DNA of 64,000 nucleotides from an uncultured Gammaproteobacteria bacterium (GCA_964348895.1 CAYGEH010000001.1:182610-246609), one strand, 5' to 3'. Shown: positions 21,007-64,000, counted from the stretch's first letter. Numbers and translations are program-made. The notes: generated from the sequence alone by a model not told the origin.

Positions 21007-21461
21007 TCAGACTAACATCGCGTGTTGGCAAAACCTCTTGACCAGCCCTGGTAATAATCTCTCCTTTTCTACTCTTTGTCCGTTTTGAATTAGTGGTTCA
21101 CCAACAAAAATATATCTTCCTTCTAGCTTGCCATCTTCACTTGTAAGTATGATTACTTTTTGAGGACTGTTTTTCCCTGACCACTCCACTCTGCCAGAAA
21201 AAACAGCATAAATGGGCTCTTCTTTTAGAAGAAGAACTCCCCAGTCACTAACATTGTAATCTAGTTGAACTTTTTTCCCCGCAACAATCTTTCTTCTTCT
21301 ACCGGAGGCCCAAAAATGTCAGCTGGAAGATAAGGAGCTGGGTCTGGAAGAAAAACTTCTATTTGAGATTCTTGAGGCGGAGGAACCTGAAGGTCGACTT
21401 TTTCCCCTTCTCTTCTTGTTTGAAAAATAAAATAAATCCCCCAACCGACTAAAGTTAACAA
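21007..21461 (-). pseudogene. Frameshift-split gene for a small membrane-anchored protein with a beta-barrel-like (M23/LytM-like, non-catalytic) C-terminal domain
   Basis: ORFs 21261..21461 and 21007..21189 are joined by a single +/-1 shift near the G4A6 run at about 21263-21319. The second frame is open from 21318. The fused product is about 140 aa with an N-terminal TM segment. Confidence 0.4.
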
Positions 21462-21842
21462 CGCTAATCCTAGTGCTAAAAAAAAGAAGAAACTTTCGCC
21501 TGCTATTTTTTTGATAAGACAGGGCTTTAATAATAAATTGATTGTTTTTCTTTTAGAGATGTTAACATCTAACTAAAGAATAAAGAAATAAACGACAACT
21601 GTCAAGAGAAACACACTATAATATAAATAACAAACTGAGTGTTTCTGTCATTTGATTTAGAAAGCTATTAGCATTCTTTGTCGAGTAAGCATTTTTCCTG
21701 CTTGCAGAATCGTCGTCTTCTATTCTTATTCTTCTTGGTGTTTGTTAAACCATAAGTTACAATTTACAAAAACTCTTCTATTCCAAACACCCCAAATCCT
21801 TAAAAAAGACCAATATATCCGACAGTCCTCCCCTCCAGAGCA

Positions 21843-35353: not shown

Positions 35354-35382
35354 TTGACAATCATTAAAAAACAACCTATACT
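35354..35382 (+). promoter_or_regulatory. Sigma70-like promoter TTGACA-17-TATACT for the pilN-like operon
   Basis: TTGACA at 35354-35359 and TATACT at 35377-35382, about 28 nt upstream of the GTG start. Confidence 0.5.
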
Positions 35383-35409
35383 GATTTTAAGATTAGTTTT
35401 TGGCTTGCC

Positions 35410-35973
35410 GTGTCTAAAATAAAAGGGGAAATTTCACTACTACCAAAGGAAAAAGATGAAAACCGACTCGAACAAGCCTCTGACTGGATAATAACTACTG
35501 GTCGGTGGGTTGTTGTTTTTACCCTTTTCTTTGTTTTACTGGCCTTTCTGTCTCGTTTTTGGCTAGACCAAAGAATTGCCGACCTCTACGCCCAAAGCGC
35601 GCAAAGAATTGCTATCGTTGAAGCCTCTAAAGACTTTGAGGAAGATTTTAGATTACTTCAAAATCAGTTTGATAGAATCCAAGCTTTAGATCAAGAAAAG
35701 CCAAATCAGGCCGAACAGGTTAAAAAAATAATTGCAATTCTGCCGGAAAGAATTAACCTGACCTCAATTAACATTGTTGACGATCAAGTTGATTTCACTA
35801 TTATTTCCCAAAACGAGCTTGATTTAAATCATTTTTTTCAAAATTTAATTCTTTGTCCATACCTTGATCAAATTAATATTGCTAACATTTCCACCAAAAC
35901 ATTTGGTATCGAAACAGAAATTTCTGTTAACGCTAGATTTGTCGATGTTATTAGCGAGACCAACAAACAATGA
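35410..35973 (+). CDS. PilN-like type IV pilus assembly protein
   Basis: N-terminal ISLLPKEK...R (INLLP-type PilN signature), a single TM helix and a periplasmic domain; 187 aa; likely GTG start. Confidence 0.55.
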   Translation: MSKIKGEISLLPKEKDENRLEQASDWIITTGRWVVVFTLFFVLLAFLSRFWLDQRIADLYAQSAQRIAIVEASKDFEEDFRLLQNQFDRIQALDQEKPNQAEQVKKIIAILPERINLTSINIVDDQVDFTIISQNELDLNHFFQNLILCPYLDQINIANISTKTFGIETEISVNARFVDVISETNKQ

Positions 35974-36611
35974 TTAATCTACCCAAGCTTTCTTATCGCA
36001 ATGCTTTGTCTCAAATACCAATTCCAGTGCGAGAAAAAAGTCGCAAATGGGCTTCAACAATAGCAACTCTCTTTTTGACTACTTTCTTTATTGCTTTTGC
36101 CATCAGACCCACTGTGATTACTATTGTTGAACTTTTGGCCGAAATTAGAGCTCGAGAGGAATTAAACCAAAAGCTTCAAGAAAAAATAGAGCAAATTATG
36201 GTGGCTCAAAAACTATATAACCAAATATATCCTCGACTTTATCTTCTCGACCAAGCTTTACCGACAAATCCTAAATTTGCCTATTTCTCGCAAACTCTAG
36301 AAAGCAATCGAATAGAGGCTAATTTAAACTTGGAAACTCTTAATTATTCTTCAATAGTTTTAACTGAAATGGCCGACACTAAAACAGAAGAAAAAAATCA
36401 AGAATTTGTCTTTACCACGGGTCTTTCTGGTCGCTATCACGACCTAAAGAGTTTTCTAGAAAATCTTTTTAACCAAAGAAGAATTATTTATATTAATAAT
36501 CTAAAGATTGACCAAAAGCAGAATAATCAACAAGGCGAGCAGGCCCAGGCTGACATCCTCCCCTTAACCATTACCATTGACGGCGAAGCATTTTATTTGG
36601 GCAGTGAATAA
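35970..36611 (+). CDS. PilO-like type IV pilus assembly protein
   Basis: Short cytoplasmic N-terminus, TM helix, coiled coil (ELNQKLQEKIEQ) then a periplasmic domain; overlaps the pilN-like gene by 4 nt. Confidence 0.5.
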   Translation: MINLPKLSYRNALSQIPIPVREKSRKWASTIATLFLTTFFIAFAIRPTVITIVELLAEIRAREELNQKLQEKIEQIMVAQKLYNQIYPRLYLLDQALPTNPKFAYFSQTLESNRIEANLNLETLNYSSIVLTEMADTKTEEKNQEFVFTTGLSGRYHDLKSFLENLFNQRRIIYINNLKIDQKQNNQQGEQAQADILPLTITIDGEAFYLGSE

Positions 36612-37035
36612 CAACATCGAACAAACAAACAATAAAAAGTCGAACAAAAACAACGATTGGTTAATAATCGCCATTTTTGTTTTACTTTGCGCTCTGGTTT
36701 GGGTGGCTACAAGCTCTTATCACAGCTTTGTTGATAAAAAAGAGGTGGTAATTAGACAGGAGCTACTTGTTCCTCTTCAGCCAAAAATTGATCCATCTTT
36801 ATTTGATACTTTAGAGGCTCGGATTCACCCCGACGAAGAGAAGTTAATAGAAATTCTTTCTGAAAACAGTCCCAACATAATTGGTTTGGACGAAGAAACA
36901 GAAGAAACTGAAATGGACCCCATTTCGCCTCGACCAATAGAAACCAGAGAAACAGTCGACCCGCTAGACGGATCAGCTCCTCCGCCAACAACAAATGAAA
37001 TAAATCAAGAAGAGTTGCCGGCTCTAGCTCCATAA
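36577..37035 (+). CDS. Small membrane-anchored acidic protein, unknown function (PilP-position)
   Basis: TM helix LIIAIFVLLCALVWVA; acidic, Pro-rich C-terminus; 152 aa. Confidence 0.4.
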   Translation: MTAKHFIWAVNNNIEQTNNKKSNKNNDWLIIAIFVLLCALVWVATSSYHSFVDKKEVVIRQELLVPLQPKIDPSLFDTLEARIHPDEEKLIEILSENSPNIIGLDEETEETEMDPISPRPIETRETVDPLDGSAPPPTTNEINQEELPALAP

Positions 37036-37067
37036 AAGAAAGAGGCATAATTTCCCTAAAAAAAGCA

Positions 37068-38525
37068 ATGAGGCTTAAACCCGCCAAAACCATTCCCAGT
37101 ATTATTGGCCTTTTGCTTTTAACCGTTCTTGTCTTTGGCGGTGTTTATCTTACTCAAAGACTAGGCAGAACCACCACTCAAATTGCTGCCTCGCGCCAAC
37201 CCTTATCAGTCAGGGTGGCCAATATTACTGATCGAGCCGCTGTCGTTTACTGGCTAACAGAAGAAGAAACAGAGGGAAGTATTAAGCTTAACGATAAAAT
37301 TTATCTTGATAATCGAGACAGGGTTTCTTCTCAGGCAAAAAAACGCTTTACTCATTATGTCGCCATTGATGATCTTCTTCCAGGCGAAACCTATCATTTT
37401 GCCATTATCAGCCAAGGGCAAATTCAACAAAAAGACAGCTTTCAGTTTACCACTGCCCAAGCCTTGATTGGTCCTCCTGCAGAAGTTGCCGATTTGGCTT
37501 TTGGTATTATTTTGGACAATCAACAAAATCAGCCCTTGGCTGACACTCTTGTTACTCTTTCTCTGCCTGGAGCCACTAATCTGGCTAGCCTAACTGACGA
37601 CAATGGTTTTTGGTCTATTCCCTTGAGCACTGCTTATCAGAAAGATTTATCTAGGCCAATTAGTTATGATCGAGAAAAAGAGGTTCTTGAAATCCTAGTT
37701 GAATCTCGTCCTGGATTAAGCTCAACCGTTATCACTAATACTGGTAATGATCATCCAGTTCCTCCGATAATCATTGGAAAGTCATATGATTTTTCCCAAA
37801 ATCCTCCCACCCCAAGACAGCAACCAGAAGATTTTGATTGGACTAACCCTCTAGAAACAGTTGAAGAAATAAACAACTCTTCTTTTTTTCTTCCCCAAGA
37901 GCAAATTGACCCAAAAGAAGCTCAAGCTGTAATCAATATCAACGATCCCCAAGAGGGAGAAACTGTTTTTACCGCTAAACCAGAATTTTCTGGACGAGGT
38001 CCGGCTAATCAAACTATTAAAGTTACTTTAGAATCGCCTAAAAAGTTTGAGGAGGAGATTGTTGTTTCTGCCTTTGGCTCGTGGCAATGGAGTCCACCAG
38101 AACACCTTACCCCCGGAAGACACACTCTCACTGTTGAGTATCACGACGAAAACAACATTCTTCATGTTGTCAGTAGAACCTTTATAGTTCAAGCCTCTAG
38201 TATTTCTCCTTCGCCAACACCAATAGTGCCTCTACCAACCATCCCCCCTCAAGTTACCCCAACTCCTACTCCAGTTCGAACTACTCCAACCCCTACTCCA
38301 GTTCGCACTACCCCAACTCCTACTCCAGTTCGCACTACCCCAACTCCTACTCCAGTTCGAACTACTCCAACCCCTACCCCTTTGCCAACAATAACACCAA
38401 TAATTAAAGAAGCCACTGCTCCAGCCGAAATAGTTTCTGGCAACTTGACGCCCTTGGTTATTCTTGCTATTCTGGGCTTAGGCTTAATTTATTTTGCTTT
38501 TGTTGTTCATCAAAAAAAACACTAA
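37068..38525 (+). CDS. Surface protein with Fn3-like domain, 4x PTPTPVRTT repeat linker and C-terminal TM anchor with basic tail
   Basis: Signal anchor; Fn3-like VANITDRAAVVYW...YHFAI; tandem 27-nt repeats; C-terminus TPLVILAILGLGLIYFAFVVHQKKH. Confidence 0.55.
   Translation: MRLKPAKTIPSIIGLLLLTVLVFGGVYLTQRLGRTTTQIAASRQPLSVRVANITDRAAVVYWLTEEETEGSIKLNDKIYLDNRDRVSSQAKKRFTHYVAIDDLLPGETYHFAIISQGQIQQKDSFQFTTAQALIGPPAEVADLAFGIILDNQQNQPLADTLVTLSLPGATNLASLTDDNGFWSIPLSTAYQKDLSRPISYDREKEVLEILVESRPGLSSTVITNTGNDHPVPPIIIGKSYDFSQNPPTPRQQPEDFDWTNPLETVEEINNSSFFLPQEQIDPKEAQAVININDPQEGETVFTAKPEFSGRGPANQTIKVTLESPKKFEEEIVVSAFGSWQWSPPEHLTPGRHTLTVEYHDENNILHVVSRTFIVQASSISPSPTPIVPLPTIPPQVTPTPTPVRTTPTPTPVRTTPTPTPVRTTPTPTPVRTTPTPTPLPTITPIIKEATAPAEIVSGNLTPLVILAILGLGLIYFAFVVHQKKH
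38259..38366 (+). repeat. Perfect 27-bp tandem repeat, 4 copies, encoding PTPTPVRTT
   Basis: ccaactcctactccagttcgaactact repeated four times with only synonymous variation. Confidence 0.8.
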
Positions 38526-39928
38526 TGCTTCCCGCTTCAAATAAACCATCACCGCCACCTCTTCCTCCAGAAAACTACAAGAATCAAATTGCCGTTAACT
38601 TTAGCTCTATTGACAATAATCAAGTCAAAACCCAACCCTCTCAAGGCTCCAAACAAAAAACAAAAAAAATATTTATAATCATCGCTGCTATTTTTTTGGC
38701 ACTAATAGCGCTAATGGGAGCTCTTTTTTTCATTCGAGAAAGACAAGACATCAGAGAAGAAGCAGCAACAACTGGACGCTTAATTTGTATGCCTGTTGAC
38801 AACAATGGAAATATCACTAATGAAAAATATCAACATGATCGAATGTTGGTTAAAAACGAAACAAATAGAGACATCCAAATCAAAATTCAAACTAATCTTT
38901 GTCCATATCAAGGACAAAATCCTCAAATCGGATATCGCTGCGATGACTATGTTGGCGCTTTCCCTTATATTGTTCGGGCGGGAACTCAGGTAATTTTACC
39001 CAATCCCGATACCGAATCATGGTTGTCACAGGGCTGGGTTGGTTGTCAAAAAATTGGTCAAATGGACATTCAAAAAGATAAAGATCACTACATTCACATT
39101 GGTGTTGACCCCAACACTATTCCAGACTGCTTTAACACTGTTGACAATCGCGTTTGGGAAGGGGGAATTGCTTTTACTATCAAGGCTAATTCTGCCTCCT
39201 GTTGTCCAAAAATGGAAGTAGCCGTCTCCCCTAATAATCCTAGACCAGGACAAGAGGTTGTTGTCAGAGCCTCTAGTCCATCTCCCCTAGTTTGTGCTGA
39301 ACTAGTTAATTTTTCTGGCTTGGCCGGAAAACCAACTTGGATTGGCATGGACGGAAATTATAACTGGTCCTGGAGGGCAACCGCTGGAAACACCCCCGGA
39401 CAATACAGTCTTACCTTTAGGGGCAATACTAGGGATTCTGGTCAAGGAGTCTGTCCGGGTCGGGCGATCGGTGACTGGTGTCAAGTAACTGGCAACTTTG
39501 GTGTTGGCGTTGCCCCAACTCCAACCCCAACTCCAACTCCCACTCCGACAATCTTTCCGACTCCCACTCCAACCCCCACCCCAACACCTCCCCAATACGA
39601 CTACAACTGCCATACTATTAATGTTTACGATGCTAATCGAAATTTAATTAATCGTAACGACTTAAAAAACCTAAAAGCAGGAGACTTAATTTACATCGGA
39701 GTGGTCGCCAACAGTGGCCATCCAATCCACCAAATTAATAAAGCCAGGATTCGTGTTAATCGTAATTATTGGCTGGCTCAAGATGAAACTAGCGAAAAAT
39801 TAACTACCAGCGCTAATCATTTAACTGAATTTGTTAAAAGCTACATTATTCCTGAAGGATTATTGAATTTTAAGATTGAGGCAGAGGTTCACCTTAACGC
39901 TCCCAGTCCAGTCGGAGGCTGGCGTTAG
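38525..39928 (+). CDS. Membrane-anchored extracellular Cys-containing protein with a (TP)n linker and a C-terminal beta-rich domain
   Basis: Pro-rich cytoplasmic N-terminus (PSPPPLPPENY), TM helix, Cys-containing ectodomain, [12 protein letters not shown] linker; its ATG overlaps the upstream stop (TAATG). Confidence 0.5.
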   Translation: MLPASNKPSPPPLPPENYKNQIAVNFSSIDNNQVKTQPSQGSKQKTKKIFIIIAAIFLALIALMGALFFIRERQDIREEAATTGRLICMPVDNNGNITNEKYQHDRMLVKNETNRDIQIKIQTNLCPYQGQNPQIGYRCDDYVGAFPYIVRAGTQVILPNPDTESWLSQGWVGCQKIGQMDIQKDKDHYIHIGVDPNTIPDCFNTVDNRVWEGGIAFTIKANSASCCPKMEVAVSPNNPRPGQEVVVRASSPSPLVCAELVNFSGLAGKPTWIGMDGNYNWSWRATAGNTPGQYSLTFRGNTRDSGQGVCPGRAIGDWCQVTGNFGVGVAPTPTPTPTPTPTIFPTPTPTPTPTPPQYDYNCHTINVYDANRNLINRNDLKNLKAGDLIYIGVVANSGHPIHQINKARIRVNRNYWLAQDETSEKLTTSANHLTEFVKSYIIPEGLLNFKIEAEVHLNAPSPVGGWR

Positions 39929-39940
39929 TTAAAAATTATT

Positions 39941-40414
39941 ATGACATCTAAAAAAACCCTAAAGACCATTGTTATTATTGTTGCCAGCCTCTTGTTGTTA
40001 GGACTAACTGTTTTCTTGGCTAGTCAAATTTATCAAACTCGCCAAGAACGTCTGGCTCCCACTGAACCAAGGGCGGTCAGCCCCACTTGCACTCTGGCTT
40101 TTACTATTTTGCCACCAACCCCAACCCCCACTCCGACACCTCCTCCAATCGTAACGCCTACTCCTACTCCAACCCCAACTCCCACTCCGACACCCTCTCC
40201 GACTCCGACTCCAACCCCAACCCCCACTCCAACACCTCCTCCAATCGTGACGCCTACTCCTACTCTTACCCCAATCCCAACACCCTCCCCAATCGTAACA
40301 CCTCCTCCTACTCCACCAACCACTCTGCCAGAAGCTGGAAGCATTTTGCCAACCATTGGAGTAGCCTTGGGCGGATTATTTTTGGGAATACTGGGACTCC
40401 TCCTCGTTTTTTAA
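39941..40414 (+). CDS. Small Thr/Pro-rich surface protein with C-terminal LPEAG + hydrophobic segment (sortase-signal-like)
   Basis: N-terminal signal anchor, about 90 aa of TP repeats, then [29 protein letters not shown] at the C-terminus. Confidence 0.5.
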
Positions 40415-57204: not shown

Positions 57205-57274
57205 CGCGGGGTAGTGTACGGTGGCACGTGAGGCTCATAATCTCACAGATCAGGTTCAACTCCTGACCCCGCAA
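57205..57274 (+). tRNA. tRNA with CAT anticodon, probably initiator tRNA-fMet (C1:A72 mismatch)
   Basis: CGCGGGG...CCCCGCA acceptor with a C:A first pair, as in E. coli tRNA-fMet; anticodon loop CTCATAA; T-arm TCAGG-TTCAACT-CCTGA. Preceded by an extended -10 TGTTATAAT. CCA is not encoded. The D-stem and anticodon stem are not fully initiator-like. Confidence 0.55.
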
Positions 57275-57539
57275 CATTAATTGCCAAGTCTTCTAGGGGC
57301 AATCTTTCTTCACTTCGTTTTAGTTTAAATTAAAAAACAAAAAGGCTTTTTGTTTTATTTATTTGGTCTTCGTTTATTTCAAGAGTTTTTCTTTGTTAAA
57401 TTACTTTCTTCTTTGATTCTAGGTCAAGCCAAGGTTAATTAAAGTAATTAAATTTTAAAAAATCCAAAAAAACAATAACAGCTAATAGCCTTAAATTACT
57501 TAAAAATGAAAAGTTTGATAAAATTAAGAGAATTAATTT

Positions 57540-57616
57540 GGCAGGGTAGCTCAGTTGGTTAGAGCAGGCGAATCATAACCGTCAGGCCGTCGGTTCAAAT
57601 CCGACCCCTGCCACCA
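57540..57616 (+). tRNA. tRNA with CAT anticodon (elongator Met or lysidine-modified Ile2), CCA encoded
   Basis: GGCAGGG TA GCTC AGTTGGTTA GAGC A GGCGA ATCATAA CCGTC AGGCC GTCGG TTCAAAT CCGAC CCCTGCC A CCA. Close to the E. coli elongator tRNA-Met / tRNA-Ile2 framework. Confidence 0.8.
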
Positions 57617-59904: not shown

Positions 59905-60921
59905 CTATCTGAATAAATCAAATACTTTTCCCCATTGTCCCAAAATAAATCTATTCGTTTTTTCCAAATTTTCTAAAAATATCGTTAATAGGTTTTTCTT
60001 TCTTTTCTCCTGTATTTCTCGATCGGCTCTTGCTCCCAAAACAGCAACTTCGTCATAAAACCTCATTTTAGTATCTTCAATGTCTTCTCCTAAAACTTCT
60101 GGCCAAGCAATCATTTGTTTTTGCATTTCTTCTTCCTCTTGAGAAATTCTTTCCGGTAAAATCAAATAAGAAACTGAGGCTAAATCTTTTAAAACATTGG
60201 TGCCTCTCCCATCATTGGCCAAAACCATTGAGCTTGGCAAAAATTCTACTTTCACTATTCCCGGCTCCTTCCCTCTAAAGAAAACCGTGCCAAATGTACC
60301 CTGATTTGAAAAAAATCCTGGATTGGGCAAACCTCCAGTAAGCCTAACATAGCCAATCTCGTTGTTTATTTCTTTTTGAATGAAAATATTGGCAAATGAT
60401 TCTTCAATTGAAATTTCTACCACTTCTATTTTGTCAGGATCAAAACCCAAGTCTGCCTGAACTGCATTTATCGGCGTCTTAATCCCAGTTATTTCTACGC
60501 TCATCGGAAACAGTTCTCCTAGTCGATACTGCCCTCGAGAAGGAATAATAAAAGAAACAGTTTTGGGGGTTGGGGGAAAACCAAGCTTGAAAAGTAGTTG
60601 ACTCTCCACAAAAACTATGCCCAAAGAAATAAGAGAGAAAACCAGAATTAGCCCTCCATTTAAAATTGCCGAAGAAAGCCCCGCAGGAGATAAGCCCTCG
60701 CTTTTATTGATTTCCCGACGACAAAAGAAGCACCTTCTTCCTTCTTTTCCCGCCCGACATAGGAAACAGGCAGTTTGGGCTGGAGCAAACAGCCACCAAA
60801 TAGGGTAAGCAATCGCCAAAAAAACGCCAAAAATTGCCAAAACATGAATCAAAACCCAAGAGGCAATAAGTAGGGGAATAATAAATAAAAGTAGCTTAAG
60901 GCTTGGTATTTTGGGGTTCAT
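59905..60921 (-). CDS. Membrane-anchored protein with CxxC-x9-CxxC loop and an extracytoplasmic cohesin-like domain
   Basis: Three N-terminal TM helices around CFLCRAGKEGRRCFFCRRE. Residues ~130-250 (FPMSVEITGIKTPINAVQADLGFDPDKIEVVEISIEE...GYVRLTGG...GTFGTVFFRGKEPGIVKVEF...ANDGRGTNVL) match the cohesin beta-sandwich sequence pattern. Confidence 0.5.
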   Translation of the reverse strand: MNPKIPSLKLLLFIIPLLIASWVLIHVLAIFGVFLAIAYPIWWLFAPAQTACFLCRAGKEGRRCFFCRREINKSEGLSPAGLSSAILNGGLILVFSLISLGIVFVESQLLFKLGFPPTPKTVSFIIPSRGQYRLGELFPMSVEITGIKTPINAVQADLGFDPDKIEVVEISIEESFANIFIQKEINNEIGYVRLTGGLPNPGFFSNQGTFGTVFFRGKEPGIVKVEFLPSSMVLANDGRGTNVLKDLASVSYLILPERISQEEEEMQKQMIAWPEVLGEDIEDTKMRFYDEVAVLGARADREIQEKRKKNLLTIFLENLEKTNRFILGQWGKVFDLFR

Positions 60922-61997
60922 TTGTCCAGATAAAACAATAAAATTGAAAAGTCGATCGCATTACACTCGCCGTCATCATTAAGATCACAATCTGAAATAT
61001 TAGCATAAACCTCTTCCCGGCTGGTTATCGCAACCAAGAATTGCTTCCAGTTATCAACCCAACCGCTTACCGCATCATATAGTTCGCCCCCCTCTATCCT
61101 ACCATCTTTATTAACATCAAAAAAAGCTAAAAAAGAAGGAAGAAGAGCCAAGGGTCTGGTTATTTCGGGAGTAGGGGTTGGTAGTTTAGCTTCTGGGGGC
61201 ACAAACAGAGGAGGCGGAGTTGGTAATGTTAATGGGCCCGGTGGGGGCGAATCGTCTAGGGGAAAACTGGGAAAGATGGTCCTGTTAGTGGCAAGATAAC
61301 CCGCTTTTGTCGCTTGAAAAGCACATCTTCCTGCCAAAACTCTACAGGTAGCTGGAAAAACAATTCCTTCAGTTGTCCACCCTGAACTAGGACTAGCTGA
61401 ACGAACAATATTTAGGACTTGACCGTCAAGGTGATTCCCCACATAAATATTTAAAATGGCAGAGGGAGAAACCCTTGGCGTTGTCGTTGAAATCCTCCAT
61501 TGCAAGGCTCCATCGACCACCACTCCTGACGGAAAACCAGACAAAGACCGGAGAGAAACGGCGGCGACAAGAAGGGAAACTGGGTCGTATTTTGCCTCAT
61601 CTTCTCTGGTTATGGCCGTATTTTGAGGTAAAATAATTCTGCTAAAATCAGTAGAAACGGGAATATTAATTGTAATTTGAGTCGAGGCAAGAAGAGAAGA
61701 AACAAGAGTGATGGTGTCTACTGAAGGTTTTCTTAACAGGCCAGCGGCAAAAAGGGAAGCTACTTGGTGGGGGGCAACATTATCAGGGTCTATCGCTGGA
61801 ATCAAGCAGCCAGAAACATTGAAAGTGCAGGAAGTAAAGGGAAGATTGTTGTTCTCATAACACAGCAAGTCCCCGCCTAAATAACCTAAATTAAGACAAG
61901 TTCTGTTTTGTAAGTCGCCAACCTCACATTCTTCATTGCTTTCTACCGTGCCATCACCACAAACATTTATTCTCACCGTTGCTTTAATGTTACCCAA
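60918..61997 (-). CDS. Secreted protein with N-terminal Cys-rich repeat (CGDGxVExxEEC type) and C-terminal type-I dockerin domain; true start probably at 62124 with a homopolymer frameshift
   Basis: C-terminus FDVNKDGRIEGGELYDAV...DLNDDGECNAIDFSILLFYL is two canonical dockerin Ca-binding loops plus helices. N-terminus INVCGDGTVESNEECEVGD matches the Myxococcus-type Cys-rich repeat. The listed start is TTG. The frame stays open upstream to 62111, and an ATG at 62122-62124 in the +1 frame encodes MNKLTLPFQSKKK, which joins a hydrophobic signal h-region if the T10 run at 62085-62094 were T9. Confidence 0.6.
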   Translation of the reverse strand: MGNIKATVRINVCGDGTVESNEECEVGDLQNRTCLNLGYLGGDLLCYENNNLPFTSCTFNVSGCLIPAIDPDNVAPHQVASLFAAGLLRKPSVDTITLVSSLLASTQITINIPVSTDFSRIILPQNTAITREDEAKYDPVSLLVAAVSLRSLSGFPSGVVVDGALQWRISTTTPRVSPSAILNIYVGNHLDGQVLNIVRSASPSSGWTTEGIVFPATCRVLAGRCAFQATKAGYLATNRTIFPSFPLDDSPPPGPLTLPTPPPLFVPPEAKLPTPTPEITRPLALLPSFLAFFDVNKDGRIEGGELYDAVSGWVDNWKQFLVAITSREEVYANISDCDLNDDGECNAIDFSILLFYLDK

Positions 61998-62120
61998 ATG
62001 GCTTGTTGCTTTTGCTTCTTTAACCCTAGAGAGAAGAATAATTTCAAGAAGTAGGAAAAGGAAAATTATAAAAAAAAAGGGTAATTTTTTTTTTGCTTTG
62101 GAAAGGAAGGGTTAATTTAT

Positions 62121-62774
62121 TCATTTTTCTTTTTTCTCCTGCTTGTCTTCTAAAATAACCTCTTTGGTGGTTTTAGGTTTTTTTAGATTAATTTGAATAT
62201 TAAAGAATCTTTTAAAGGCTAAAAGCAGAGCTACTATTGAGAGGAAAATTAACCCCCGCTGTGGCCAAGGAGCATAAACTCTAAAAAAACTAATTAACTT
62301 ATAGTAAAGACCAGAGAAAACATTAGTTGGCTCAACGGTAAAATAGAGTCTGGCAGCAGCAGCTATACCCACTCTGGTTTGGCTCTCCTGAGCCGTTTCT
62401 ATTGGACGAGCCTCCAAATAAGCAAAATAATCACCTGGCTCCATTCTTAGGGGCAGATTAAGCTTGACATCAACTGGCTTGACTTTGCCTGGTTCTAAGT
62501 GAAAAGTTTTAGGAGAAAAAATAAACCAATCCTGCTCTGGTTTTTTTTCTGGTTGCTATTCGTGATATTGAATTGAAATTTCATAATCAGAGGGTTCTCC
62601 TCCAGTATTTAAAACCGTAAACGAAGGGAGCTGATAGATCATTCCCGGCTTTAGCTTCTCATCAACCTGAATTTTACCCACCCCTACCCCCACGCCTATC
62701 TGGGCTAGGGTTTGACTAAAAAAAGAAAGAAAGATTGTTAATAAAAAAAAACAAAAAAACGTTAACCGTTTCAT
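62121..62774 (-). pseudogene. Signal-peptide protein with C-terminal TM anchor, interrupted by a single in-frame TAG (62556-62558)
   Basis: ORFs 62556..62774 and 62121..62444 are in the same frame. The only interruption is one TAG (...ISIQYHE*QPEKKPEQDWFIF...MEPGDYFAYLEARPIE...), and the frame is otherwise open. The product would be about 217 aa: signal peptide, beta-rich ectodomain, C-terminal TM LIFLSIVALLLAF plus KR-rich tail. Confidence 0.5.
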
Positions 62775-62830
62775 TGAAACAATTATACACTAAAAGAGAA
62801 AGAAACAAACTGGTTTATTGGAGAAAATCA

Positions 62831-63340
62831 TTAAAGTGTAGCCTGAACAATCACATCTACATTTTGCGCAGTAAAGACGGTTGAAGGGTTTGGAGCAGTA
62901 ACTTGTAAGTTAAGGGGTGTTGTGCCAAGTGGTGCCACTGACGTTGCTAGGTTTTGATTAGTAAGGGTTAGGGGGGTCCCGCCAGAAAAGGTGCTACAAG
63001 TGGTGTTTAAATATCGATGGACATATTGATCTGCCCCTGGTGTAGCCGCCAGCGTCCAGTTGGCCGAATTAGTCCCTCTGATGTTAAAAGTTGCTGACAC
63101 ATTACCAGTATTAGTCACCGTTTGAAGTTCGTTTGCTTCAGTGGTACAGGTGCTTCTGCTGGTATTGGCTGGTATTATGCCGTAAGCAATTGTCCCATCT
63201 GTAACCGAAAGGGCTATGTTTTGGACTGTAACTGTTGCTATTACTGTGCTCTGGGCCCCAGCATTTCCGACAAAGAAAGAAGAAACTACGAGTAAAAAAG
63301 AAACTACGAGTAAAATGGCAGAGAAGCGTTTTGTTTTCAT
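62831..63340 (-). CDS. Small secreted beta-rich protein (paralog B), pilin/adhesin-like, unknown family
   Basis: Signal peptide containing an 18-bp tandem duplication. Shares motifs GTIAYG, TFNIRG, WTL, QYVH and C-terminal VDV(I/T)(V/I)QA with the neighbouring paralog; 169 aa. Confidence 0.55.
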   Translation of the reverse strand: MKTKRFSAILLVVSFLLVVSSFFVGNAGAQSTVIATVTVQNIALSVTDGTIAYGIIPANTSRSTCTTEANELQTVTNTGNVSATFNIRGTNSANWTLAATPGADQYVHRYLNTTCSTFSGGTPLTLTNQNLATSVAPLGTTPLNLQVTAPNPSTVFTAQNVDVIVQATL

Positions 63341-63396
63341 TAGTATTTAATAAAACAGATTGTAATTTTCTTGTCAAGAGGTATTTTTCTTTAAAA

Positions 63397-64000
63397 CTAT
63401 TGAACTGCCTGTATAGTTACATCAACTGCTTGCTGGCTGTCACAGAAGGAGAGGCTGGGAACAATGATGCGTAAATCAAAGTTCCTAGAGGCACTTTGGG
63501 CAACATTAGTGTAGAGAGCTTGATTGGTCGTGGTTAGGGGAATATAGTTGGTTGGCGGGCTAGTACAAGAAACATCGGTGGTTCGGCAAAATTGATGAAC
63601 ATACTGATTGCTGCCAATAGTTGAGGCCAGCGTCCAAGGACAGGGAGCATTCTGCCCCCTGATATTAAATGTTACCGTAACATTGCCGTTATTCTGGGCA
63701 GTGATAGTCCGATTCATATCGGCAGAATGAGTGGCTCTGGCGCCTCCAGGGGGAACCATCCCATAGGCAATTGTTCCGTTGGCGGTAATCACAACCGAAA
63801 CAACGGCTGTTGAAACTTCTTGCCATTGAAAAGAAAACTGAAAGCGAATATTTGTATCTCCTGCCGCTGCTTCTTGAAAAAGAGCAATCCCCTCGCCTGG
63901 AGAAAGGATTAGTTCGTCGCCAAAAATAATTTGTCTTTCATAAACACCAATACTTTGATTAACAACCCCAGGGGCAGTAACGCCAAGCAAGCGTGAGTCG
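63397..64000 (-). CDS. Secreted beta-rich protein (paralog A), partial, continues beyond window end
   Basis: Same motif set as paralog B (GTIAYGMVP, VTFNIRGQN, PWTL, QYVHQF, VDVTIQAVQ). No signal peptide within the window and the reading frame stays open to position 64000. Confidence 0.5.
   Translation of the reverse strand, partial: DSRLLGVTAPGVVNQSIGVYERQIIFGDELILSPGEGIALFQEAAAGDTNIRFQFSFQWQEVSTAVVSVVITANGTIAYGMVPPGGARATHSADMNRTITAQNNGNVTVTFNIRGQNAPCPWTLASTIGSNQYVHQFCRTTDVSCTSPPTNYIPLTTTNQALYTNVAQSASRNFDLRIIVPSLSFCDSQQAVDVTIQAVQ

Follow-up and report, generated by a model that had tools for sequence, protein, structure and literature searches.

Chaperones of the chaperone-usher systems are soluble periplasmic proteins that carry a second domain, PapD_C. 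In the Pam pilus of CPR bacteria, Ig-fold pilins assemble by donor-strand exchange (Troman et al., bioRxiv 10.64898/2026.03.03.709456). The Pam operon encodes two-domain PamA and PamB pilins, and its PapD-like chaperones, PamC and PamD (WP_260763277.1 and WP_260763284.1), possess two beta-barrel domains with a hinge and a C-terminal TM helix (bioRxiv 10.64898/2026.03.03.709456). A further protein with an Ig-like ectodomain on a C-terminal TM helix, WxLIP (DUF916-DUF3324-TM), belongs to the WxL clusters of Firmicutes (PMC10599100; PDB 9i1y). Here, we describe a gene of Patescibacteria whose predicted product resembles these proteins in fold and that is interrupted by a single in-frame TAG. The window, by which we mean the whole stretch of DNA that was analyzed, is 64,000 nt long, and all coordinates are counted from its first base.

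Translation of the minus strand from 62774 to 62121 gave 217 codons in one frame plus a terminal TGA, and the sole internal stop was the TAG at codon 73 (62556-62558, cta on the plus strand). The codons around this stop are CAC GAA TAG CAA CCA GAA AAA AAA CCA, its 30-nt context is CACGAATAGCAACCAGAAAAAAAACC, and the translation reads MKRLTFFCFFLLTIFLSFFSQTLA QIGVGV...SIQYHE * QPEKKPEQDWFIF...KQEKKEK. The two ORF pieces of this frame comprise 62556..62774 (72 aa) and 62121..62444 (107 aa when counted from its first ATG), with the stop-to-stop remainder 3' of the TAG amounting to 144 codons. A preliminary description of this DNA had proposed a gene of about 217 aa that was otherwise intact, with two same-frame ORFs parted only by the TAG, a signal peptide upstream, and a C-terminal TM segment plus basic tail downstream. 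The translation agrees with that proposal in each respect: the signal-like hydrophobic stretch occupies aa 1-24, and a second hydrophobic segment (aa 174-192) and, C-terminal to it, a Lys-rich tail are present downstream of the stop. The features of the locus are collected in Table 1.

Table 1. Positions of the disrupted gene, its parts, and the adjoining genes in the window.
Feature	Coordinates	Strand	Description
Large-gene 3' end	63397..64000	-	1074-aa gene continuing past the window; C-terminal domain homologous to the 169-aa protein
Upstream small secreted protein, 169 aa, intact	62831..63340	-	Predicted Ig-like sandwich; conserved unstructured N-terminal strand
Disrupted gene	62121..62774	-	217 codons + TGA; ~212-aa Patescibacteria family with signal peptide, PapD-like Ig domain, and TM segment
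Signal-peptide-like N-terminus MKRLTFFCFFLLTIFLSFFSQTLA, aa 1-24	62703..62774	-	Hydrophobic segment
Mature part of truncated product, aa 25-72	62559..62702	-	First 4 of 9 predicted Ig-like strands
In-frame TAG, codon 73, next base C	62556..62558	-	Predicted loop between beta-strands 62-69 and 84-87
Remainder 3' of TAG, 144 codons + TGA, predicted untranslated	62121..62555	-	Rest of Ig domain, GDYFAYLE and AAAxxLYF motifs, amphipathic helix, TM segment, basic tail
C-terminal membrane anchor, predicted	62199..62270	-	Helix aa 169-190; hydrophobic core GLIFLSIVALLLAF, aa 174-187
ATGA overlap	62121..62124	-	TGA of PapD-like gene shares bases with ATG of dockerin-type gene
A10 run (T10 on plus strand)	62085..62094	-	5' end of dockerin-type gene, within signal-peptide coding region
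Dockerin-type gene, frameshifted at A10	60918..62124	-	Signal peptide, Cys-rich repeat, Pro-rich linker, dockerin-like C-terminus
Last cassette gene, TM protein, weak cohesin-like match	59905..60921	-	Intact; 338 aa versus 340 aa in L010; TAG end

The read-through product, with X at the stop, was used as the query of a protein search with a cut-off of E ≤ 1e-3, and 544 proteins matched. The best 120 of these 544 matches are 186-246 aa in length and cover 81-100% of the query; the top matches had E values of 4.4e-89 to 1e-71 and identities of 54-66%, and those with names derive from Patescibacteria (Levy-, Davies- and Beckwithbacteria). Alignments to the homologs run continuously through codon 73 (for example, query residues 1-202 against L012), and codon 73 lies inside a single ungapped segment when genomic loci are examined by tblastn. 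Because single alignments to homologs cross the stop without a gap, the two pieces are, as judged by comparison with the family, one gene and not a chance juxtaposition. Within alignment A1 (34 sequences), the query conforms to all 42 invariant columns, both before and after the stop, and it possesses all of the family features, namely the IGVGV, GDYFAYLE, AAAxKLYF, and APWP motifs, the signal peptide, the TM segment, and the basic tail.

To survey orthologs, one genome per GTDB species was scanned, giving 113 relatives, and the best 80 of the 113 loci were retrieved. These loci span Microgenomates, Parcubacteria, WWE3, Dojkabacteria, and other groups, and they contain 82 copies of the gene. 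No internal stop was found in any of the 82 copies (80 GTDB species genomes), and stops within the alignments occur only at query positions 199-211, the natural gene ends. The preliminary description had suggested looking for a sense codon at the TAG position in orthologs, and all 82 copies have one; it had also considered that the orthologs might themselves be split or absent, as in simple decay, and they are intact. This result points to a young, lineage-specific lesion rather than to old decay. The residues in the TAG column are Asp (22), Lys (19), Asn (16), Gly (11), Gln (4), and others, and the codons are AAT (15), GAT (14), AAG (11), AAA (8), GAC (8), and others. In relatives that share the preceding YHE motif with the window, the next residue is mostly Lys (AAG or AAA), so AAG (Lys) to TAG, a single A-to-T transversion, is the most economical change and the likeliest ancestral event by sequence comparison. 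As a separate matter, DGR adenine mutagenesis was considered as a source of an A-to-T change and rejected, given that no repeat of at least 30 nt touches 62450-62650.

Each ORF is intact and has been called as a gene, as would be expected if the two pieces acted together as a split, two-polypeptide protein. We assign this arrangement next to no probability. The first possible restart 3' of the TAG is the ATG at 62444 (aa 111), which is preceded by no visible Shine-Dalgarno sequence, offers no signal peptide, and would skip three strands, and no split homolog was found among the best 120 matches or the 82 genomic copies. Without a signal peptide on the 3' piece, a functional split protein is implausible.

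The fold of the encoded protein was predicted by using AlphaFold2 with alignment A1, which yielded a model with a mean pLDDT of 80.9. The model consists of a signal helix (residues 2-18), a nine-strand Ig-like sandwich (28-147), an amphipathic helix (152-167), and another helix (169-190). A Foldseek comparison to the PDB matched this model to PapD-like/ASH domains and to the N-domains of the chaperones Caf1M, DraB, FaeE, SafB, and FimC (E values of 1.6e-7 to 1e-5, TM scores of ~0.35-0.4), and also to WxLIP of Enterococcus faecium (9i1y, E value of 1e-5). Pfam PapD_N gave weak matches in 22 of the 34 family members (best E value of 9.8e-5), Pfam and NCBIfam gave no match with the read-through protein of the window, and profile searches of PDB sequences with alignments A1 and A2 returned nothing meaningful; thus, the fold is visible only through AlphaFold2 with Foldseek and through the weak PapD_N matches in relatives. 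On the basis of the model, the gene product is predicted to be exported by the Sec route, to contain one PapD-like domain, and to be anchored in the membrane by its C-terminus. Its probable role is that of a chaperone or assembly factor, tethered to the membrane, that serves the pilin-like proteins whose genes lie just upstream.

Comparison of this protein to the described systems revealed both similarities and differences. Its best structural matches, the chaperone-usher proteins PapD, FimC, Caf1M, DraB, and FaeE, have their second domain and are soluble in the periplasm, whereas the window protein has a single domain and a TM helix; moreover, its host lacks an outer membrane, and no usher-like gene is present in the cassette. 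When compared by description, the window protein shares with PamC and PamD a CPR/Patescibacteria host, a Sec signal, a PapD/FimC-like Ig fold, and a C-terminal TM helix, and its gene likewise adjoins those of Ig-fold pilin-like proteins with a conserved extra strand. The Pam chaperones have two domains, however, whereas the window family has a single domain of ~120 aa. Additional differences are that the pilin-like neighbors are single-domain proteins here and that the locus includes dockerin-like and cohesin-like genes, which are unmentioned in the preprint. WxLIP resembles the window protein in placing its Ig-like ectodomain on a C-terminal TM helix but has two such domains rather than one. 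The WxL clusters are similar in that a "small" and a "large" protein share one C-terminal domain, but the partner family in the window has a single invariant W-T-L rather than the dual WxL motif. Membership in the WxL clusters was rejected, as there were no WxL, DUF916, or DUF3324 Pfam matches and only the architecture is analogous.

The disrupted gene occupies the middle of a five-gene cassette. The gene order in L010 and L012 (closest relative) is large, 175-aa, 212-aa, 215-aa, and 340-aa TM, and the window shows the same order. The first gene encodes a large Gly-rich protein with a C-terminal domain, the second (175 aa in L010/L012) encodes that domain alone, and the fourth (215 aa in L010/L012) encodes a signal peptide, a Cys-rich part, and a dockerin-like part, with its ATG overlapping the preceding TGA. 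Among the 80 loci, the large gene was found as a neighbor in 75, the small gene in 75, the dockerin type in 67, and the cohesin-like gene in 62; by this measure of recurrence, most of the 80 sampled Patescibacteria genomes share the conserved five-gene cassette. The cassette (59905-64000, minus strand) continues 8.4 kb upstream in L001, and the homologous loci are L010 to L091. Upstream of the window end, positions 1551-3881 of L001 encode a 776-aa protein with DUF8128 and faint DUF87/TrwB-like ATPase matches, and this gene and a beta-lactamase-like gene adjoin the upstream side of the 1074-aa cassette gene.

The 169-aa protein encoded just upstream of the disrupted gene has ~156 detectable homologs. 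Its model (pLDDT of 88.5) is an Ig-like sandwich in which a highly conserved N-terminal stretch (consensus ATVTATVTVQNISVSV) is unstructured. The matches of this model to the PDB are individually weak (E values of 0.013-0.2) and are mostly to donor-strand-exchange subunits, including FimA/F/G, CfaB, CsuA/B, PapA/E, archaeal cannulae, and bundling pili. These predicted folds are suggestive of a fiber assembled by donor-strand exchange, related in principle to the Pam pilus but built from a different gene set. The cassette may represent a Pam pilus relative that is so far undescribed and that combines donor-strand exchange, a single-domain membrane-anchored PapD-like chaperone, and cohesin/dockerin anchoring, an assignment that we put forward tentatively as somewhat short of an even chance; it concerns the locus and not the TAG. 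Elsewhere in the window, positions 35368-40414 of the plus strand contain genes for PilN-like and PilO-like proteins followed by those for large secreted proteins with Ig-like domains, the latter including long Pro/Thr-rich tandem repeats at 38228-38389 and 39496-40325. This cluster looks like a type IV pilus-related locus typical of CPR genomes.

To examine whether the TAG is real, the two fragment proteins were used for an exact look-up, and the 72-aa and 107-aa fragments were each found to be called on 11 to 12 contigs. Five contigs were retrieved, four from Logan assemblies (ERR3094287, ERR3094288, ERR3094290, and ERR3094301) and one from the ENA assembly ERZ27247798, and all five matched the window with 100% identity across stretches of 1.9-11.9 kb in which the TAG and the nearby homopolymers are included. 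An NCBI record whose contig measures 691,268 bp also contains both fragment proteins. No variants were found in the 90% clusters of the two fragments, and no intact allele of the species was found among 5.8 billion protein clusters, where the best full-length match was 66% identical. A scan of JGI metagenomes with the flanks of the TAG (NNN at the codon) gave 0 matches and was uninformative, the species being absent from that collection. As observed in the assembled contigs, the TAG is genuine in the DNA. MAG consensus sequences do carry single-base errors, and a sequencing, base-calling, or assembly error that conceals a sense codon would account for the stop; nevertheless, the same base was obtained in five separately built assemblies (four runs and one ENA MEGAHIT-style assembly), and the substituted base does not fall in a homopolymer. 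Because separate read sets and assemblers give the same base, random errors of base calling or assembly are excluded, and we consider an error of any of these kinds to be extremely improbable.

The consecutive run numbers and the identical contigs indicate that the contigs probably sample one clonal population, so the word "fixed" applies to this allele within that habitat only. Population variation often affects surface and pilus loci, and the TAG could represent the majority consensus in a heterogeneous population where a subpopulation retains the intact allele, for example by frequency-dependent loss of a surface structure. The adjoining A10 tract, a classical slip-prone site, fits such a scenario. 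On the other hand, every assembly passes through the TAG site without a break or variant, the protein collection holds no intact allele of at least 90% identity, and a base substitution is not reversible at a high rate. Heterogeneity of this type is thus given as an unlikely explanation.

The use of stop codons in the window was then compared. ORFs of at least 100 codons end in TAA (30), TAG (25), and TGA (20), and ~12 of the 25 that end in TAG are at least 250 aa long. The D-Ala-D-Ala ligase (Ddl) gene ends in TAG with the Pfam C-domain matched to 203/204, and the last gene of the cassette ends in TAG at 338 aa versus 340 aa for its counterpart in homologous locus L010. TAG is a normal terminator in the window, and the standard code is used. 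This finding agrees with the earlier statements that TGA, TAA, and TAG end the neighboring genes normally and that code reassignment is unlikely. Altered codes are used by some Patescibacteria lineages and some phages, and the TAG could in principle be a sense codon by reassignment, pyrrolysine insertion, or a dedicated suppressor, but TAG closes about a dozen long genes at the expected protein ends and no tRNA with a CUA anticodon is encoded in the 64-kb window. We regard the chance of this possibility as negligible. The tRNAs of the window are one for Cys and two for Met only; the two tRNA-Met genes (57205-57275 and 57540-57616) are 265 nt apart and are located between ftsH and a DivIC-like gene. 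In the window, TAG separates four pairs of same-frame ORFs in which one ORF or both reach 100 codons, and homology was examined for this pair only, which represents one gene.

Partial decoding of the UAG by a near-cognate tRNA (Lys, Gln, or Tyr), whether leaky or programmed, would mean that a reduced amount of full-length protein is still made and that the allele attenuates expression rather than being null. Known examples of programmed read-through include the A1 protein of Q-beta and the UAG-CAA-UUA context of tobacco mosaic virus, and the stop of the window resembles the latter in that UAG is followed by CAA. A TAG followed by C is a relatively weak terminator, as found for E. coli termination contexts and viral read-through motifs, so some full-length protein may be made from the UAG-CAA-CCA sequence here. 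Also compatible with read-through, the stop is situated in a variable surface loop that tolerates almost any residue, and the remaining ORF is flawless and has diverged no more than intact homologs, as expected from purifying selection under partial read-through. A young pseudogene predicts an intact ORF equally well, however, and the window differs from the programmed examples in several respects. The stop is conserved in 0 of the 82 orthologous copies. The RNA downstream of the TAG showed no stable structure (MFE of -16.1 kcal/mol versus a shuffle mean of -17.65, z = 0.47), and no Rfam match was found around the TAG at E values up to 1. Furthermore, TAG ends many genes normally, the window has no suppressor tRNA, and the neighboring dockerin-type gene is also broken. 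We consider read-through of this stop to be improbable.

The age of the lesion was gauged from the deviation at conserved columns over the core of the protein (aa 25-200) in the alignment of 34 sequences. This measure took the place of dN/dS, given that identity to the closest relative reaches just 66% and that the synonymous sites are saturated. The query ranked 24th of 34 in mean identity to the family over this core. Its N-terminal half showed an identity of 0.706 versus the family mean of 0.708, and its C-terminal half showed 0.619 versus 0.650 (SD of 0.04) for the family. At the 74 columns that are at least 90% conserved, the query deviated at 3, and the intact members deviated at 0-8. 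By core identity and conserved columns, no decay other than the stop was detectable; therefore, either the lesion is young or weakly tolerated, or selection still acts on the gene.

The preliminary description had offered three options for the stop. A recent nonsense mutation that creates a pseudogene is the one that held, with the TAG present in five contigs, all 82 orthologous copies intact, and no read-through signal detected. The base-call error that it also listed is contradicted by the reproduction of the TAG at 100% identity in those contigs, and no signal for programmed read-through was seen, the stop being nonconserved and free of an RNA structure or Rfam element. We conclude that the TAG is probably a genuine recent nonsense mutation that is fixed in the sampled population of one strain of Patescibacteria (Microgenomates-like). 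The disrupted gene is an ordinary lineage-specific pseudogene. As in other nonsense pseudogenes, one stop is found in a conserved domain, the orthologs are intact, the standard code applies, and a second lesion is present in the operon; nothing essential differs here, and the gene is without further decay.

The consequences of a nonsense mutation at this site would be as follows. Translation would stop at the TAG to yield a 72-aa precursor, or 48 aa after signal cleavage, and this product would contain approximately four of the nine predicted strands while lacking the invariant GDYFAYLE and AAAxxLYF motifs and the membrane anchor. The truncated product is almost certainly inactive, as judged from the model, because it lacks five of the nine strands, the motifs that are most conserved in the family, and the anchor. 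The 3' part would not be usefully translated, and a restart at aa 111 would generate a cytoplasmic fragment without a signal peptide. The ATGA overlap at the end of the gene, which is present in ~24 of 77 homologous loci, suggests translational coupling to the dockerin-type gene; early termination would remove this stop/start coupling, with polarity as the presumed outcome, in that translating ribosomes would no longer reach the junction.

The dockerin-type gene is itself disrupted. Frame 0 from the ATG at 62124 reads MNKLTLPFQSKKK... and reaches a stop 13 codons later, and beyond the A10 run, the signal peptide LPFFFIIFLFLLLEIILLS and a 385-codon body are encoded with a frame shift of one base. 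Homologs align upstream of the annotated TTG start of this gene. The preliminary description had noted a frameshift in a dockerin gene of the same surface operon, and we located it at the A10 run of the adjoining gene. The A10 run is identical in all retrieved assemblies, and homopolymers of at least 9 nt are present at the same 5' position in 8 of the 77 homologous loci, which marks this position as a slip-prone spot. The A10 site could be phase-variable or rescued by slippage. The TAG and A10 lesions are ~470 bp apart in adjacent cassette genes, and the other three cassette genes, including the 1074-aa gene seen in L001, are intact. With two lesions in adjacent genes, the cassette of this strain appears to be off or decaying. 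Low but useful read-through of the UAG, combined with correction of the A10 frameshift by transcriptional or translational slippage, would instead make the two sites a dimmer of the surface-fiber cassette in a Patescibacterium with a reduced genome rather than signs of a dead locus. We view that combination as highly improbable, and we rank it below the assignment of the cassette as a relative of the Pam pilus. At a distant position (21007-21572 of the window, minus strand), a pair of 103-codon ORFs that overlap in different frames resembles one frameshifted gene and represents a possible third lesion. The first ORF encodes an N-terminal TM segment, the second is a degenerate LytM/Peptidase_M23-like sequence (Pfam E value of 4e-5, below the cut-off), and the two join around GGGAAAAAAG.

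For annotation of this genome, the gene should be marked as a pseudogene and the TAG should not be "repaired," since the base call is correct. The conserved cassette is a more interesting object than the lesion, and its predicted folds tie it to Pam pili, the donor-strand-exchange fibers recently described for CPR bacteria. The strain has probably lost one conserved surface structure. As a natural knockout, it would, provided that it can be tracked in its habitat, offer a handle on the role of that structure, for example in host attachment, by comparison with its intact relatives.
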